Part shown: positions 1,891 to 11,848 of the stretch, piece by piece
Numbering within the stretch: position 1 is the stretch's first letter
Layout of the letters: each line of letters starts with the position of its first letter
Origin: a virus
Taxonomy: Duplodnaviria > Heunggongvirae > Uroviricota > Caudoviricetes
IMG/VR virus record: IMGVR_UViG_2713896773_000022
Span: 1-13,038 of that record
Direction: 5' to 3' (one strand)
DNA length: 13,038 nt
Notes under the pieces: generated by a model
Told to the model about the DNA's origin: nothing
Database searches by the model: none
The model's input: only the letters and a program-made list of their open reading frames with translations
Translations under genes and position numbers: made by a program

Positions 1891-2180
1891 GCCGCGTTCT
1901 CCTGATGAATGATTTCCAGATCCAGCTTTTGAGCCAGAGCGTGTTCCGCTTTTGCGCCTGCTGATTTCTGCCAGCCGGACAGCAGGAAAATGCCGTCAGC
2001 GCAGCGGAGCATAGCGAGACAAATATCCATGTACTCTGGCTGGCTCAGGCCATCGGGAAGCGTCGCAGGGTTTAACACCACATGGCCTTCCGACGACAGG
2101 CGCATAGCCTCAAAATGGAACGCAGGGCGGTTAAATTTCGGGATGCCGGTCATTGGCCCAGCAATGTAAATTTTCATCAA
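1887..2180 (-). CDS. DUF4406 / nucleoside 2-deoxyribosyltransferase-like small protein (97 aa)
   Basis: N-terminal MKIYIAGPMTG is the typical start of NDT-like/DUF4406 Rossmann-like proteins (recognised from memory); gene starts 3 nt downstream of the helicase stop, so same operon. Confidence 0.55.
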   Translation of the reverse strand: MMKIYIAGPMTGIPKFNRPAFHFEAMRLSSEGHVVLNPATLPDGLSQPEYMDICLAMLRCADGIFLLSGWQKSAGAKAEHALAQKLDLEIIHQENAA

Positions 2181-3574
2181 AATTCCCTCTTTTTGTTGGG
2201 TCTGGCATCATTCGCGCGGCGTTTCTGCTCAGCAGCAGCCTGGTCACAGTCGTAGATCGCACCGTTGCGCTGGTCGCAATACACAACGCCGGTCGGGCCG
2301 TGGCGGTTCAGGCGCAACAGCAATTCGGTAGCCGCCTGATCTGCGTTTTCGTCGTATGCGCCTTCGCGGTAGATGCCGATCCAGTAATCACAATCCTGCT
2401 CAATCTGCCCGGTGTCGCGGGAATCACTCGGCATCGGGCGTTTGTTAGTGCGCTTCTCCAGATCACGGTTCAGCTGGGTAAGCAGCACCACGATGCAGTT
2501 CAGTTCCTTCGCCAGGTTCTTCAGCCCCTTCGTGATAATCCCGTAGGCCAGGTCGTTACGGTCAGCCTTGTCGGCGGTCATCAGGGTCAGATAGTCCACC
2601 AGCACCATGCCGACAGCGCCGCGTTCGCGTTTGATGCGACGTGACTCTGCGACGATATGCGCCAGCGTGATCCCGGGCGTGTCGTCGACGTACAGGTTTC
2701 CGTTCTGGGCCAGCCGTCCAGCGGCAGCAAAGGCCATTGCGACTTTTGTGTCGTCGTACCGATCGCCATAAAACACATCGGTATTTACGCGGCTCACCTG
2801 CCCCACCATGCGCTCCACAATCTGCTTATCCGGCATTTCGAGGCTAAACATCAGCGCGGGGAGCTGCTCAACTTCGGCACAGTTGACGGCCAGCTGGCTA
2901 TACAGCGTGGTTTTACCCATCTTCGGACGTGCGCCGATCACCATCAGAGCGCCTTTAACCAGTCCTTTCGGTTGCAGCAGGTCATCCAGCGAGCCAATCC
3001 CCGTCGACAGTCCACGCGTTGCGTCTGAGTCGCTCCAGCGCGCTTCCACCTCGTCCACCCAGTCGCCCATCACTTCCGAAAACTCGCGGAGCCCCCGGCG
3101 GTTACCGGTTTTCGCGTAGTCAGCGATATCAGTGAACAGGGTCTGAATAGCGTCAAACTTCTGGCTGGTGGTCATCCCGTTGCGGGAATACAGCAGCTCG
3201 GTGGCGCTGTTCAGCTTGTCAATGCCGTAACGCTCCATGGCTTTCTCGCGCACCAGCATGGCGTAGTGAACGATGTTCGCCGCGCTGGGAGTGTTTTTGG
3301 ATATCTCGGCCATGTAAGCGAAGCCACCAGCCTGCTCGCCAAGCCCTTTAGATTCCAGCGACTCAATCAGGGTGATCAGGTCGATAGGCTTCTGGTTGGC
3401 TGCCAGCTCCCGCATCTCGGCGAAAATCACCTGGTGGGGGCGGATGTAGAACGATTCTGGTTTGAGCATCGACATGGCGGTCTGGCAGCGATCGCTACCG
3501 CTATCCAGCATCATGCCGCCCAGCACACTTTGTTCGGCTTCGATGTTCTGCGGGATCATGTTCATGTCGGTCAT
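2177..3574 (-). CDS. dnaB: Replicative DNA helicase, DnaB family (phage-encoded, 465 aa)
   Basis: N-terminal IEAEQSVLGGMMLD motif, Walker A GARPKMGKTT, Walker B-like MVLVDYLTLM, overall DnaB architecture; start ATG 3574..3572 overlaps the stop of the O-like gene (ATGA). Confidence 0.9.
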   Translation of the reverse strand: MTDMNMIPQNIEAEQSVLGGMMLDSGSDRCQTAMSMLKPESFYIRPHQVIFAEMRELAANQKPIDLITLIESLESKGLGEQAGGFAYMAEISKNTPSAANIVHYAMLVREKAMERYGIDKLNSATELLYSRNGMTTSQKFDAIQTLFTDIADYAKTGNRRGLREFSEVMGDWVDEVEARWSDSDATRGLSTGIGSLDDLLQPKGLVKGALMVIGARPKMGKTTLYSQLAVNCAEVEQLPALMFSLEMPDKQIVERMVGQVSRVNTDVFYGDRYDDTKVAMAFAAAGRLAQNGNLYVDDTPGITLAHIVAESRRIKRERGAVGMVLVDYLTLMTADKADRNDLAYGIITKGLKNLAKELNCIVVLLTQLNRDLEKRTNKRPMPSDSRDTGQIEQDCDYWIGIYREGAYDENADQAATELLLRLNRHGPTGVVYCDQRNGAIYDCDQAAAEQKRRANDARPNKKREF

Positions 3575-8104: not shown

Positions 8105-8272
8105 ATGCAGGCTACGACCAAACAGCAGCAGGCGATGAACCTTATCGCGCTTCTGTGCCTGATGTACAACTTATCGCCAGCTGACCTTGAGGCTATTGCC
8201 CACCAGCTCGCGCACTTCGATGCAGTTTGTGATTACAGAACACAGGGGATTAACAATGCTGCGTGTCATTGA
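8105..8272 (+). CDS. Possible small ORF (55 aa), uncertain
   Basis: ATG 8105 with GAGGAA RBS; MQATTKQQQAMNLIALLCLMYNLSPADLEAIAHQLAHFDAVCDYRTQGINNAACH; stop overlaps the start of the exonuclease gene by 17 nt. Not in ORF track (under 60 aa). Confidence 0.35.
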   Translation: MQATTKQQQAMNLIALLCLMYNLSPADLEAIAHQLAHFDAVCDYRTQGINNAACH

Positions 8273-8927
8273 TACCGAAACGACTGGGCTGGAAGGCGGT
8301 CCGGAAACCGTGGTGGAAATTGCCAGCGTCGATATCGTCGACGGGGTGATCTGCAATCCAATGAGCGACCTCGTTAAGCCAGGCGTGGCGATCGGTTTTG
8401 AGGCCATGGCTATTCACCATATCACCGAAGACATGGTGGAAGGCGCGCCGCTGCTCAGTGAAGTAATTGGCCGCTATCTGGGGGCAGATGCCTACGTCGC
8501 CCACAACGCGAAGTTCGATAAAGCCAAACTTCCTGCAATGAACGCCCCGTGGATCTGTACCGCTAAGCTGGCGCGTTCGCTCCTGCCGGATCACAAGAGC
8601 CACAGCAACCAGTACCTGCGTTACAGCCTCGGACTGAAACCGGAAGTACCTGAAGGGCTTTACGCTCACCGAGCGCTGTATGACTGCTACGTCACCGCCG
8701 AATTGCTGCTCTATATGGGCCGCCTGGCGAAATGGACGATGGGCGAAATGCGCGCCATCTCCAATAACCCTTCCCTGCTGCATGCGCTCCGCTTCGGTAA
8801 GCATAAAGGCGTCTCGTTCGCAGAGCTGGCAAAAACAGAACCGGGTTACCTGCGCTGGCTCGTTGCCAACAGCGAAGACGAAGACGTGCTGTTTACGGCT
8901 GAACACTGGCTGAACGGGGGTAAATGA
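8256..8927 (+). CDS. exoX: DnaQ-like (DEDDh) 3'-5' exonuclease, homolog of host exodeoxyribonuclease X (223 aa)
   Basis: Alignable by eye along its length to E. coli ExoX as recalled: MLRVIDTETTGL (Exo I motif), VAHNAKFDK (Exo II), HRALYDCYVTAELL (Exo III), C-terminal FGKHKG...EPGYLRWL. Start chosen at internal ATG 8256 (RBS CAGGGG) instead of the track start 8187. Confidence 0.85.
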   Translation: MLRVIDTETTGLEGGPETVVEIASVDIVDGVICNPMSDLVKPGVAIGFEAMAIHHITEDMVEGAPLLSEVIGRYLGADAYVAHNAKFDKAKLPAMNAPWICTAKLARSLLPDHKSHSNQYLRYSLGLKPEVPEGLYAHRALYDCYVTAELLLYMGRLAKWTMGEMRAISNNPSLLHALRFGKHKGVSFAELAKTEPGYLRWLVANSEDEDVLFTAEHWLNGGK

Positions 8928-9595
8928 TGGGTACTCCAGTGCTGATCCTAGGTGACTCTGGCGCGGGCAAGTCCTACAGCCTGCGCAACTTCAATCCGGA
9001 CGATGTGATGCTGCTCCAGTGCATTCCCAAAATGCTGCCGTTCAAGTCTGCGGGCTGGAAACTTCACGGCAAGCTGCTGCCAGACGGAAGCAAACAGCGC
9101 GGTAACGTTCTGCGCTCGGATAACTGGGAAACGGTGCTGGACACCATCTATCGCATGGTGCAGTCGAAAACGCGCCGCGTCCTGATCATCGACGATTTCC
9201 AGGTGGTCATGCAGCACGAGAACATGAACCGCGCGTACCAGACCGGCTATGCCAAATTCACCGAAATGGCAGATCACATCTGGCGAATCATCATGGCGGC
9301 CACCGAGCTGCCGGACGACTTCCGCGTTTATTTCCTGGCTCACACCGAAGAGACCGAGGGAAAGATCCGCATGAAGACCACCGGGAAGATGCTCAACGAA
9401 AAGCTGACTCCAGAGGGCTATTTCTCCATCGTGCTGCGCGCCATCAAGAAGGACGGTAAACACGTTTTTCTCATCAAAGGCGATGACAACGACACCGCCA
9501 AAGCGCCGCCCGACCTGTTCCCGGACCAGACGGAAATGGACAACGACCTCCACGCCGTAGACGTGGCTATCACCGAATTTATGACCGAATTGTAA
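8924..9595 (+). CDS. P-loop NTPase, Sak4-like (AAA_24-type, RecA-related) putative recombination ATPase (223 aa)
   Basis: Walker A GDSGAGKS and Walker B VLIIDDF; size and position next to an SSB-like gene match the phage Sak4 plus cognate SSB arrangement (established knowledge, recalled); ATGA overlap with the exoX-like stop. Confidence 0.65.
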   Translation: MMGTPVLILGDSGAGKSYSLRNFNPDDVMLLQCIPKMLPFKSAGWKLHGKLLPDGSKQRGNVLRSDNWETVLDTIYRMVQSKTRRVLIIDDFQVVMQHENMNRAYQTGYAKFTEMADHIWRIIMAATELPDDFRVYFLAHTEETEGKIRMKTTGKMLNEKLTPEGYFSIVLRAIKKDGKHVFLIKGDDNDTAKAPPDLFPDQTEMDNDLHAVDVAITEFMTEL

Positions 9596-9611: not shown

Positions 9612-10343
9612 ATGAACCAACCAATGACTTTTATGTGGAACAACGAAACGGCTGAGATGGCGAAGAAAGCTGGCGCAACAGGCGGGATCAGCGAAACCGG
9701 CGCTTACGAGGGCGAAATCGTTTCTGCGGTGTACACCTTCGGGAAAGATGGCAGCCAATCCCAGGCGCTCGAACTCAGCCTGGACTCGAACGGGGCAAAA
9801 GCAAATTACTTGCGCATTAACTTCCTCGGCAAAGACGGCCAGCAGACTTTCGGCATGGGGCTGGTGTCAGCGCTGATGTGGGTCGCCCAGGTCAAACAGG
9901 CGCAACCGCAACAGGTACAGGGTCAAAACGGCATCGAATGGCACTGCCCGGCACTGGTTGGCAAAAAGGTGGGCCTGTTCCTCCAGAAAGTGCTGTACAC
10001 CAAAAACGACGGCGGTGACGGCTACAAGTTCGAAGTGCGCCACGTTTTCCAGCCGGGAACGCGTAAAACCTACGCCGAGCACGCTGAAAATGCCCCGGCA
10101 GAAGCGATCGCCGCGCTTGAACTGTCGATGAAGGATAAGGACGAACGTATCCACGGCGGCACGCAGTTCTCTGGTCCGCGCAATGCCCAACATGGCGGTA
10201 ACCCTTATGCAAATCAGACTGGAGGCGCACCACAGTCTCGCTTGCAGCAGAACAGCGGTCAGCCACCGGTAGACTTTGACGACGATATCCCGTTTGCGCC
10301 GATCGGTCTTCCATTCCCTTCTCACTCTATCTATGCGTTATGA
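9612..10343 (+). CDS. SSB-like / DUF669-type phage protein carrying the SSB C-terminal tail motif DFDDDIPF (243 aa)
   Basis: RBS GAGGA upstream; Gly/Gln-rich linker followed by PPVDFDDDIPF, nearly identical to the E. coli SSB C-terminal tip (MDFDDDIPF), but here followed by 18 more residues (APIGLPFPSHSIYAL). Confidence 0.65.
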   Translation: MNQPMTFMWNNETAEMAKKAGATGGISETGAYEGEIVSAVYTFGKDGSQSQALELSLDSNGAKANYLRINFLGKDGQQTFGMGLVSALMWVAQVKQAQPQQVQGQNGIEWHCPALVGKKVGLFLQKVLYTKNDGGDGYKFEVRHVFQPGTRKTYAEHAENAPAEAIAALELSMKDKDERIHGGTQFSGPRNAQHGGNPYANQTGGAPQSRLQQNSGQPPVDFDDDIPFAPIGLPFPSHSIYAL

Positions 10344-10498
10344 CGCACACACAGGACGAAATCAGGGTTGGCGCGGTGCGCCTTCCCTGGCTCAAAGAGA
10401 AAAACGGGTGGTTGCTACCGTGGGATGATGTCGTTACCAACCCACTGAAGGCGCAACGACTGGCAGAAGAACTTAACGAAAAGCAGGTGGCTGCATGA
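10340..10498 (+). CDS. Possible small ORF (52 aa) bridging the SSB-like and dam genes
   Basis: ATG 10340 overlaps the SSB-like stop (ATGA) and its TGA overlaps the dam ATG (ATGA): coupled at both ends. MTHTQDEIRVGAVRLPWLKEKNGWLLPWDDVVTNPLKAQRLAEELNEKQVAA. Not in track (under 60 aa). Confidence 0.4.
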   Translation: MTHTQDEIRVGAVRLPWLKEKNGWLLPWDDVVTNPLKAQRLAEELNEKQVAA

Positions 10499-11367
10499 GT
10501 TATTGTGCGGAGATATCGCGCCAAGAGACGGAAACAGAGCCGCGCACTTGGCAGCGCCCGTTCCTTAAATGGGCTGGAGGCAAATATTCGCTGCTGCCGG
10601 AACTGGATCGTTTGATCCCCGCAGGTAAACGCCTTATTGAGCCTTTTGTGGGTGGCGGCTCGGTGTTCCTTAACTCAGACAAGCACGAACGCTTTCTTCT
10701 GGCTGACGTCAACGCTGACCTGATTAACCTGTATCAGATGCTGGCGGTGGTCCCCGACTCGGTGATCTATGAGGCAATGAAGGCATTCAGGCATCTGAAT
10801 GATGCCGAAAACTACACGGTAATTCGTGAAGCATTCAACGCGCAGCGGCTGGATGCGGTTGAGCGCGCAGCAGCGCTCCTTTACCTCAACCGGCACTGCT
10901 TCAACGGGCTGATCCGTTATAACCTGGACGGTTTTTTTAACGTCGGCTTTGGGAAATATAAAGCGCCATATTTCCCGGAAGAAGAGATCAGGGCATTTAA
11001 GCGGAAGGCTCACGCATGCGTATTCATGAATGCAGGCTTCAGGCGCACGATCGCGCTGGCAGGTGATGGTGACGTCGTTTACTGCGATCCGCCTTATGAA
11101 CCGCTGCCCGGCACCGCTGGTTTCACTAACTACGCGGCTGGTGGGTTCTCATGGGATAGCCAGGTAGAACTTACGGAAAGCTGTGTGGCAGCCCACCAGC
11201 GGGGGGCAAAAGTGGTGATCAGCAATTCTACCGCTCCTCGCGTAATTGAACTTTACGAACAGCACGGCTTCACGCTGCACCGCGTCAGTGCTCGCCGGGC
11301 TATATCCAGCAAAGGCAGTACCCGCGAAACAGCGAGTGATGTCGTAGCCACTTTGGGAGTGCAGTGA
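10495..11367 (+). CDS. dam: DNA adenine methyltransferase, Dam family (GATC-specific by homology), phage-encoded (290 aa)
   Basis: FLKWAGGKYSLLPEL, EPFVGGGSVFLN, LYLNRHCFNGLIRYNL, and catalytic DPPY in VVYCDPPYEPL; alignable by eye to E. coli Dam as recalled. Confidence 0.9.
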   Translation: MSYCAEISRQETETEPRTWQRPFLKWAGGKYSLLPELDRLIPAGKRLIEPFVGGGSVFLNSDKHERFLLADVNADLINLYQMLAVVPDSVIYEAMKAFRHLNDAENYTVIREAFNAQRLDAVERAAALLYLNRHCFNGLIRYNLDGFFNVGFGKYKAPYFPEEEIRAFKRKAHACVFMNAGFRRTIALAGDGDVVYCDPPYEPLPGTAGFTNYAAGGFSWDSQVELTESCVAAHQRGAKVVISNSTAPRVIELYEQHGFTLHRVSARRAISSKGSTRETASDVVATLGVQ

Positions 11368-11609
11368 TGATGAAGCTGATTAATCGCAGTAAGCAATCAC
11401 CTATTGGTCGCCGCGCTTGCGATGTTGCGCTGGCAGCTCACTTGCAAACATATGGCGACTATGGGCGAAGCAAGATGAAAGAGACTTATACGGTGAAGGT
11501 TGAAGGCGTGAAAGTCTGGGTGGAGGTGGTGAACCGAAAGGCGAGCTACGTGGCCACAGCGATGACCGGCATGCGCCGTCTCCGCTCCCTGCCCGGGCAG
11601 GTTGGTTGA
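11367..11609 (+). CDS. Hypothetical small protein (about 80 aa)
   Basis: Track ORF starts at GTG 11364; first ATG at 11367 overlaps the dam stop. Basic protein with no motif recognised; the true start may be further downstream (Met at MKETYTVKVEG). Confidence 0.4.
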   Translation: MMKLINRSKQSPIGRRACDVALAAHLQTYGDYGRSKMKETYTVKVEGVKVWVEVVNRKASYVATAMTGMRRLRSLPGQVG

Positions 11610-11650
11610 AAAAGATTTTGAATGGCCCGAACGGGCAACTGGAGAGAGCT

Positions 11651-11848
11651 ATGGATGATATTTTGGTAACGTCAGACCTGACCAGTCGCTACAAAATTTC
11701 ACGCAAAACCCTTTGGTCATGGCAAAGTGCAGACACAATGCCTCGGGGCTTCGTATGCCCGTTCCCACCCCCTGACTGGCCCGGCAACCCTAACCGCTGG
11801 CGCTCTGAGTCAATCAAAGAGTGGGAGGATAAAAAGAAGATAAATTAA
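11651..11848 (+). CDS. alpA: AlpA-family phage transcriptional regulator / excisionase-like HTH protein (65 aa from ATG 11651)
   Basis: [21 protein letters not shown]...[23 protein letters not shown] matches the AlpA pattern (HTH followed by FPxP...RW...EW); RBS GGAGAG before ATG 11651; convergent with and adjacent to the integrase gene. Confidence 0.7.

Follow-up and report, generated by a model that had tools for sequence, protein, structure and literature searches.

The window, that is, the whole stretch of 13,038 nucleotides analysed here, encodes CI, the Cro-side genes, a replication O protein and a DnaB-like helicase. It shares about 96% identity with Citrobacter phage Omnitron and is similar to phi80 in its right part; the prophage is of the phi80/Omnitron-like type. 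An IMG/VR locus (L163) showed protein-level identity to the window in 13/13 genes compared. A recombination module consisting of three adjoining genes lies on the plus strand. Its first gene (8187..8927) encodes a DnaQ/ExoX-like 3′-5′ exonuclease (Pfam RNase_T, E = 1e-19, and ExoX-like_C, E = 1e-8; PHROG 192, E = 3e-54), the start of which is ambiguous, with TTG (8187) and an internal ATG (near 8256) as the two possibilities. At its 3′ end, this gene overlaps the start of sak4 (8924..9595), which codes for a Sak4-like ssDNA annealing protein, a RecA-core ATPase (PHROG 2872 “Sak4-like”, E = 8e-84; Pfam AAA_24 and AAA_22), and sak4 ends 17 nt upstream of the SSB gene (9612..10343). Downstream lies a DUF1317 gene (10340..10498, plus strand; Pfam DUF1317, E = 4e-17), whose ATG (10340-10342) overlaps the TGA stop of the SSB gene (10341-10343) as ATGA in the long SSB allele carried by the window. 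It is followed by genes for a Dam methylase and an integrase and by a small ORF (11606-11848) without any family match. Related loci were collected by scanning a core-only SSB alignment against the viral contigs of IMG/VR. Sak4 and the SSB were paired in 72/72 of them, and an exonuclease homologue was found in 71/72 evaluable loci, none being detected in L199. Sak4 is the expected functional partner of the SSB.

The 243-aa product of ORF 9612-10343 matched PHROG 743, “single strand DNA binding protein”, over residues 5-210 (E = 4.8e-45), and 178 homologues were found. No Pfam family matched it at E ≤ 0.01, so the Pfam SSB model was left unmatched, and neither was there a Pfam match to the DUF669 model, though some sources label homologues as “DUF669 domain-containing protein”. 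The match to PHROG 44, the family of canonical SSBs, was limited to the tail (residues 185-241, E = 1.5e-5). An AlphaFold2 model built on 36 homologues showed residues 31-180 with pLDDT values of 87-95 (means of 10-residue blocks) and residues 183-243 with pLDDT below 50, that is, disordered, and such a predicted disordered tail is as expected for a linear motif. The best Foldseek match of the core was PrgE (E = 4e-4), followed by many bacterial SSB OB folds. According to the family match and the model, the ORF is the OB-fold SSB of the exonuclease–Sak4–SSB module, in which an OB-fold core (aa ~28-180) is followed by a disordered linker, then by the host-like tip in internal position and finally by the extension of 15 aa. 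The otherwise variable linker contains a second conserved short motif, SRLQQ (10236..10250, plus strand; aa 209-213), in which L211 was invariant in the 36-sequence alignment and S209, Q212 and Q213 were at least 90% conserved, while the flanks vary.

Translation of the ORF gave a C-terminal end of ...QSRLQQNSGQPPVDFDDDIPFAPIGLPFPSHSIYAL*, with PPVDFDDDIPFAPIGLPFPSHSIYAL as its 26-mer tail. The stretch PPVDFDDDIPF (10263-10295, plus strand; aa 218-228) includes DFDDDIPF (10272..10295, plus strand), which by translation and PDB comparison is a copy of the host SSB C-terminal tip, and within this the hexapeptide DDDIPF (10278-10295, plus strand). The acidic Pro-Phe motif is thus present, yet it does not form the final residues, since the class-1 extension APIGLPFPSHSIYAL (10296..10340, plus strand; aa 229-243) stands in place of the free C-terminus of the tip. 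The first-pass annotation had located the SSB-tip motif at this position, which the translation and the exact coordinates confirmed; the distance of 18 residues that it gave to the C-terminus proved to be the count from the Ile of IPF, since the Phe is followed by 15 residues. The six-frame translation of the window contains a single DDDIPF, where composition predicts 8e-5, and QPPVDFDDDIPF is identical at 10/12 positions to EPPMDFDDDIPF of Escherichia coli SSB (PDB 1eqq), which together indicate that the tip motif is real and not a chance resemblance. The PDB sequence search matched SSBs of hosts and myosin constructs that bear the SSB peptide as a tag, and no solved chain found by it extends beyond IPF. 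Inspection by eye of the two alternative frames at the IPF codons revealed no nearby stop in either.

An alignment of homologues, which the first-pass annotation had proposed as a check, showed that among 120 homologue clusters 96 terminate exactly at IPF, an AP... extension is found in 13, a single extra Asn in 3, and 8 are fragments or frameshifts. In the 36 aligned sequences the aspartates before IPF were invariant or nearly so and IPF itself was invariant (36/36), which supports the earlier suggestion of an internal SSB-tip mimic; the opposite pattern, uniformly extended homologues with a poorly conserved motif, was not observed. The identical tail is present in a 98%-identical protein cluster (clustering at 90% identity) with 510 member sequences, in Omnitron and in 6 complete E. 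coli genomes, whose annotation includes this ORF, and among 33 prophage loci with an SSB core at least 91% identical to that of the window 27 have the long and 6 the short allele. With this distribution, the sequencing error considered in the first-pass annotation was rejected.

Loci with the long and the short allele share Sak4 proteins that are 98-100% identical, their exonuclease and the downstream DUF1317 gene are unchanged, and no correlation between neighbour genes and SSB allele was found in the related loci. DNA alignment of the window and L131 (long) with L135, L153 and L159 (short) localized the difference to a tail cassette (10260..10343, plus strand) of about 85 nt, in which the end of the linker and also synonymous sites of DDDIPF diverge, while the flanks are near-identical. 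Where the short allele has TGA and an 11-nt spacer before the ATG of the DUF1317 gene, the long allele has the 45 nt of the extension. Because the alleles differ by replacement of the whole cassette, including synonymous changes in DDDIPF, the simple loss of a stop codon, the other mishap suggested earlier, was discarded as well; conservation of the extension at the protein level across unrelated proteins (see below) also contradicts it. On a neighbour-joining core tree of 36 sequences, the extension has been gained or lost at least nine times. These comparisons of alleles and homologues show that the extension is a genuine and selected element, exchanged horizontally as a cassette.

The same kind of extension was found on other proteins and elements. 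Closely similar extensions of the pattern AP[IV][GT]L[PQM][FY]PxHx[IL][YH]x[IL] stand directly after IPF on four protein scaffolds unrelated to one another, which are distributed over five phage groups and conjugative-plasmid SSBs of Enterobacterales. The scaffolds are PHROG 743 (the SSB of the window), the canonical SSB of PHROG 44, the two-OB SSB-like protein of PHROG 4477 and the primase/helicase of PHROG 239. PHROG 44 is represented by the SSB of mEpX2, which adjoins Erf and has the C-terminus ...MDFDDDIPFAPVTLPFPRHAIHAI*, and by the extended SSBs of Cronobacter phage JK004 and of Hanrivervirus (Drexlerviridae). In Vequintavirinae, both the SSB-like protein of PHROG 4477 (406 aa in KPP-1; C-terminus ...DFDDDIPFAPIGLPYGRNFIHCI*) and the primase/helicase of PHROG 239 (C-terminus ...DDDTPFAPIGLQYAKHAIYVI*) carry it. 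Bas52_0087, which had been a candidate carrier, was rejected, as this gene terminates at IPF (...SFDDDIPF*); it represents the short form within Vequintavirinae, and the primase/helicase of the same phage ends with ...EDDETPF*. The plasmid form is exemplified by the SSB of the IncN plasmid pNDM-ECS01 (C-terminus ...DFEDDIPFAPVTLPFPNHAIHAL*), and 104/140 of the matching PLSDB records were typed conjugative. A phmmer search with the last 35 residues against 1.84 billion representatives gave 13 matches, mostly fragments, one of which, an acidic repeat protein of 1098 aa without relation to the SSB (HADFDSDIARVPIGSDFS), was spurious.

The class-1 tail occurs in 44 distinct nucleotide versions, many of which differ only synonymously. 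Along a minimum spanning tree of these 44 tails, pN/pS was about 0.005 for DDDIPF and about 0.22 for the extension, the latter value being biased low since the pattern used to select the sequences predetermines several positions of the extension. The best-conserved positions of the extension are those of the N-proximal A-P-x-x-L-P, not those of its end. When IMG/VR was searched from the side of the extension with APIGLP[FY]P, 103 C-terminal 15-residue extensions were recovered, and IPF stood directly before the extension in 100/100 evaluable cases. This means that the extension does not occur alone and that IPF and the extension form a conserved unit. The acidic triplet, in turn, is relaxed in the extended tails, being DDD in 43/100 and DDP, EDD, SDD, DDQ, DDN or others in the rest.

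Continuation beyond the tip is not restricted to class 1. Among the matches listed, 116 FDDDIPF sites lie on viral contigs, of which 84 end at the Phe and 32 (28%) continue; 19/32 of the continuing sites start with Ala-Pro and most of the others have a Pro within a few residues. A class survey, in which the scan was forced to DDDIPFAP, yielded the enterobacterial 15-mer, a 9-mer AP[LMH]HHL[AN]G[A/V/S], APEWR, AP[AV][WR]LI and others. Contigs with class 1 have a GC content of 0.35-0.56 and those with the 9-mer class (APLHHLAGA) of 0.55-0.65. The 9-mer is found both on canonical OB SSBs and on a PHROG-743-type SSB, and its OB-type carriers match mainly Pseudomonas phages and look like Pseudomonas SSB. 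The class of extension tracks GC content and host clade and not the scaffold, the link to host clade being based on GC content, a few named phages and the likeness to Pseudomonas SSB.

Comparison with known tails underlines both the familiar and the unusual part of the structure. The C-terminal tip of E. coli SSB (...PPMDFDDDIPF-COOH) is the hub for SSB-interacting proteins. The tail of the window resembles it in having the whole DFDDDIPF after an OB fold and a disordered linker (Gly/Gln-rich in E. coli), but the Phe of E. coli SSB is terminal and that of the window is not, so the contact to its carboxylate, such as that made by Arg132 of RecO, cannot form. The T7 proteins gp2.5 and gp4 have acidic, phage-specific C-terminal tails that end in a terminal Phe and bind the phage polymerase. 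The Vequintavirinae pair resembles them, since the SSB-like protein and the primase/helicase are both tip-ended, with or without extension. Unlike the T7 tails, the extended tail copies the host tip, adds a conserved segment to it and occurs also in phages and plasmids without a polymerase. The closest system is the SSB of HK620, which, like that of the window, adjoins a Sak4-type annealase in a lambdoid early-left operon and has an acidic tail with a host-tip-like aromatic Pro-Phe; loading and stimulation of Sak4 depend on NDYPPF, the six residues at the end of this tail (Hutinet et al., 2018, PMC5928155). However, NDYPPF ends the HK620 protein, whereas the window has an exact copy of the host tip (DDDIPF) at an internal position, with 15 conserved residues after it, and stimulation of Sak4 was shown for the HK620 SSB, while that of the window is known from sequence and a model. 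Bas52_0087, a Vequintavirus SSB-like protein of PHROG 4477 with an FDDDIPF tip, is described in passages of a preprint as the trigger of the DRT10 defence system and is proposed there to perturb host ssDNA metabolism and SbcB (bioRxiv 10.64898/2026.04.29.721553). It is the short form ending at IPF, whereas other PHROG 4477 members carry the class-1 extension, and extended tails are not mentioned in these passages of the preprint. In the literature on the host SSB tip, HK620 SSB, plasmid SSB tails and DRT10, we found no description of residues beyond IPF. The extension is a variant of the SSB-tip docking motif for which no earlier description was found in the literature searched.

The invariance of IPF, the relaxation of the acidic part and the small residue and Pro placed after the Phe led us to propose that tip and extension constitute a composite disordered docking motif, which retunes the choice of SSB-tip-binding proteins engaged. 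We give this reading a probability of roughly one half. In known complexes of the tip, the Pro-Phe is buried in a hydrophobic pocket and the terminal carboxylate held by an arginine. In RecO, this arginine is Arg132 and hydrophobic contacts dominate (PMC3152348). In the extended tail, IPF would still insert into the hydrophobic pocket of an SSB-tip-binding protein and the contact to the terminal carboxylate would be lost; the small residue and Pro (Ala-Pro) would lead the chain out of the pocket, and the proline-rich, hydrophobic extension could make added contacts beside it. In this way, the partner choice and affinity of the SSB of the mobile element may be changed compared with the host SSB or the short allele. 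The complexes of ExoI, RecQ, chi and PriA require the free carboxylate of the Phe. This counts against the docking model, as the extension would be predicted to weaken the canonical binding rather than retune it. A function that is weak, or needed only under certain conditions, would likewise agree with the success of both alleles beside the same neighbour genes.

As to the side on which the partner is encoded, ORFs of five carrier phages from five groups (Omnitron, mEpX2, Vequintavirus EI-SP-GF, Hanrivervirus vB_EcoP_06 and Lederbergvirus MS2 LVA) were compared by all-against-all BLASTP. No protein family common to all five was detected apart from the tail-bearing proteins, a search in which remote homologues could be missed. 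The lack of another shared phage protein, the existence of plasmid carriers and the indifference of Sak4 and the exonuclease to the allele favour a host-encoded partner, which on this comparative evidence seems more likely than a phage-encoded one. Host proteins that recognise the SSB tip, either ssDNA nucleases or factors of replication restart, would be the obvious candidates. The idea of the first-pass annotation that a phage SSB tail could compete for or recruit host SSB partners remains plausible. A bolder version, which we consider less likely than not, is that temperate and virulent phages and conjugative plasmids of Enterobacterales share a dedicated, host-clade-specific second-site peptide. 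Through this peptide the tip would bind one protein of the host SSB interactome with high affinity and hijack or inhibit it; the target might be an exonuclease acting on ssDNA (SbcB/ExoI, for instance) or a sensor on which defence systems rely.

The docking model has to be weighed against several other explanations. The extension might be a masking cap that serves only to remove the free carboxylate, so that the SSB would coat ssDNA without recruiting ExoI or RecJ and spare 3′ tails for single-strand annealing. The anchoring of the terminal carboxylate in known tip complexes (e.g., by RecO Arg132; PMC3152348), the relaxed acidic part, the same Sak4 and exonuclease working with both alleles, and the existence of several unrelated extension classes would all agree with this. 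A mere cap, however, needs neither a 15-residue sequence conserved across four scaffolds and plasmids nor an IPF that is invariant in 100/100 extended tails, and it does not account for the pN/pS of 0.005 of DDDIPF within these tails, which makes it unlikely. We regard as still less probable that the extension is a handle for a phage partner, binding Sak4, the exonuclease of the module or, in Vequintavirinae, the phage DNA polymerase. There, the SSB-like protein and the primase/helicase are both tailed and adjoin the polymerase gene, which parallels T7, where the acidic tails of gp2.5 and gp4 share one polymerase site, and recruitment of Sak4 by the SSB tail of HK620 provides a further precedent (PMC5928155). 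Yet identical Sak4 and exonuclease accompany both alleles, the carriers have Sak4, Erf or no annealase, the five phages compared share no family beyond the tail-bearers, and the extended tail occurs on conjugative plasmids, too.

Comparably improbable is a proteolytic role, in which the extension with its hydrophobic, His/Arg-containing end would be either a C-terminal degron of the ClpXP or Lon type that limits the SSB level or a pro-peptide whose timely cleavage exposes IPF-COOH. In favour of this, the disordered tail closes with hydrophobic residues after a basic one, loosely resembling the C-terminal tags of MuA (RRKKAI) and SulA. But the last residue can be L, I, V, M or G, and an extra Ser is present in some homologues (…YAIS, …YAQS), which speaks against recognition tied to the exact terminus, and conservation peaks at the N-proximal A-P-x-x-L-P instead of the terminus. 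ClpX tags of the ssrA/MuA type have LAA-COOH or RRKKAI-like residues at the exact C-terminus, while the ends found here are YAL, HAI, YVI, HCI, YAIS and YAQS; besides, a degron gives no reason for the invariable fusion to IPF, and the five carrier phages compared by BLASTP share no protease. The likeness of P-I-G-L-P-F to the QLxLxh-type hexapeptides that could link the SSB to the sliding clamp of the host carries even less weight, and we consider a beta-clamp-binding motif highly improbable. PIGLPF, PVTLPF and PIGLQY are hydrophobic at positions 2, 4 and 6, as expected from the clamp-binding pattern (Hda QLSLPL, Pol IV QLVLGL; consensus QL[SD]LF / QLxLxh), but position 1 is an invariant Pro and not Gln, the hydrophobic positions fit in class 1 only, the Pseudomonas-type APLHHLAGA misfits although the clamp pocket is conserved across these hosts, and the conserved xHx[IL][YH]x[IL] half is left unexplained. 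Finally, that the tail is an artefact, that is, the result of an error in sequencing or assembly or of a stop codon that mutated recently, with meaningless read-through, has practically no chance of being true, as nothing more than the initial oddity of an internal tip speaks for it, and it is contradicted by the same ORF end in hundreds of independent sequences, by a cassette replacement instead of a point change between the alleles and by an extension whose amino acid sequence is conserved while its codons vary synonymously.

Genome maintenance in bacteria has its central docking site in the C-terminal tip of SSB, and by common understanding the terminal Phe of this tip has to be free. Conserved extended tips challenge this free-carboxylate rule, and internal tips make up a sizeable share of those on mobile elements (32/116 viral FDDDIPF sites among the matches listed). 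Internal tips are continued by conserved, clade-specific extensions, which pass as cassettes from one unrelated protein to another. This implies either a second mode of tip binding or the deliberate selection or blocking of host partners by phages and plasmids. This may bear on recombineering, through the compatibility of annealases with SSB tails, on how defence systems watching over ssDNA metabolism are triggered or evaded, and on drug efforts directed against SSB-tip pockets. If the hijacker reading were true, the extension would represent an unrecognised class of portable anti-host peptide modules, and Pseudomonas and other clades would have modules of their own, analogous to it but not the same.

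The end of the SSB, the 243-aa product of the 9,612–10,343 (+) ORF, carries the host-like tip DFDDDIPF internally, and the DDDIPF sequence was found in viral contigs (IMG/VR loci L011–L130 and L211–L308) to be trailed by several extension classes beyond the enterobacterial 15-mer. One of these, AP[LMH]HHL[AN]G[x], occurred in GC-rich, Pseudomonas-like contigs, and others had the forms APEWR(G), AP[AV][WR]LI, xxPYRxxxxL[IV][IV], M[RW]HG...WRAM and APCM. Among the matches listed from viral contigs, approximately 28% of the FDDDIPF sites were extended. The acidic triplet upstream of IPF was often degenerate in extended tails (DDP, EDD, SDD, DDQ, DDN, DEP, DNP or DGN in loci L321–L430), and IPF and the extension remained fixed where the triplet varied. 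These sequences suggest that the extended tails rely less on the acidic residues preceding IPF. The phmmer search with the last 35 residues of the SSB also matched P0123, a 1,098-aa protein containing seven repeats of HADFDSDIARVPIGSDFS, which was rejected as an unrelated acidic repeat protein.

The alignment of 36 sequences revealed, besides the tip, a further short conserved motif in the linker, (V/I)P-x-SRLQQ, whose SRLQQ part (aa 209–213) is encoded at 10,236–10,250 bp of the window. L211 was invariant and S209, Q212 and Q213 were conserved in at least 90% of the sequences; the surrounding linker of the PHROG-743-type SSBs is Gly/Gln/Asn-rich and elsewhere hypervariable. Like the tip, this motif may serve as a linear docking site, with Sak4 as one conceivable partner.

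The stop of the exonuclease ORF (8,187–8,927) overlaps the start of sak4 (8,924–9,595), and the SSB stop likewise overlaps the start of the DUF1317 gene (10,340–10,498, +). These overlaps suggest that genes of the module are translationally coupled. The exonuclease start is ambiguous (TTG at 8,187 or an in-frame ATG near 8,256). The D12-class, Dam-type adenine methylase gene (10,495–11,367) is intact and encodes 290 aa; the corresponding DNA of phage phi80, 97% identical, bears the annotation of a damL pseudogene with a frameshift. The run of 50 N at 993–1,042, inside the Ead/Ea22-like ORF (537–1,100, −), is a masked stretch or an assembly gap.

In the region 2,006–3,354 of the record of the IncN plasmid pNDM-ECS01, the ssb also has an extended tail. 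The convergent neighbour of this ssb is an SprT-family zinc metalloprotease gene, and the block that holds them includes several anti-restriction genes, ArdR among them.

SSB-tip-like C-terminal tails were likewise found in primase/helicases of Vequintavirinae (L003:506–2,581, L311:1,024–3,078 and L432:1–1,691). In Mydovirus and Seunavirus the tail reads DDDTPF followed by the extension; in Vequintavirus Bas52 it is EDDETPF, at the very C-terminus. Within a single phage, the helicase and the SSB-like protein therefore have a docking tail in common, a pair recalling gp2.5 and gp4 of T7.
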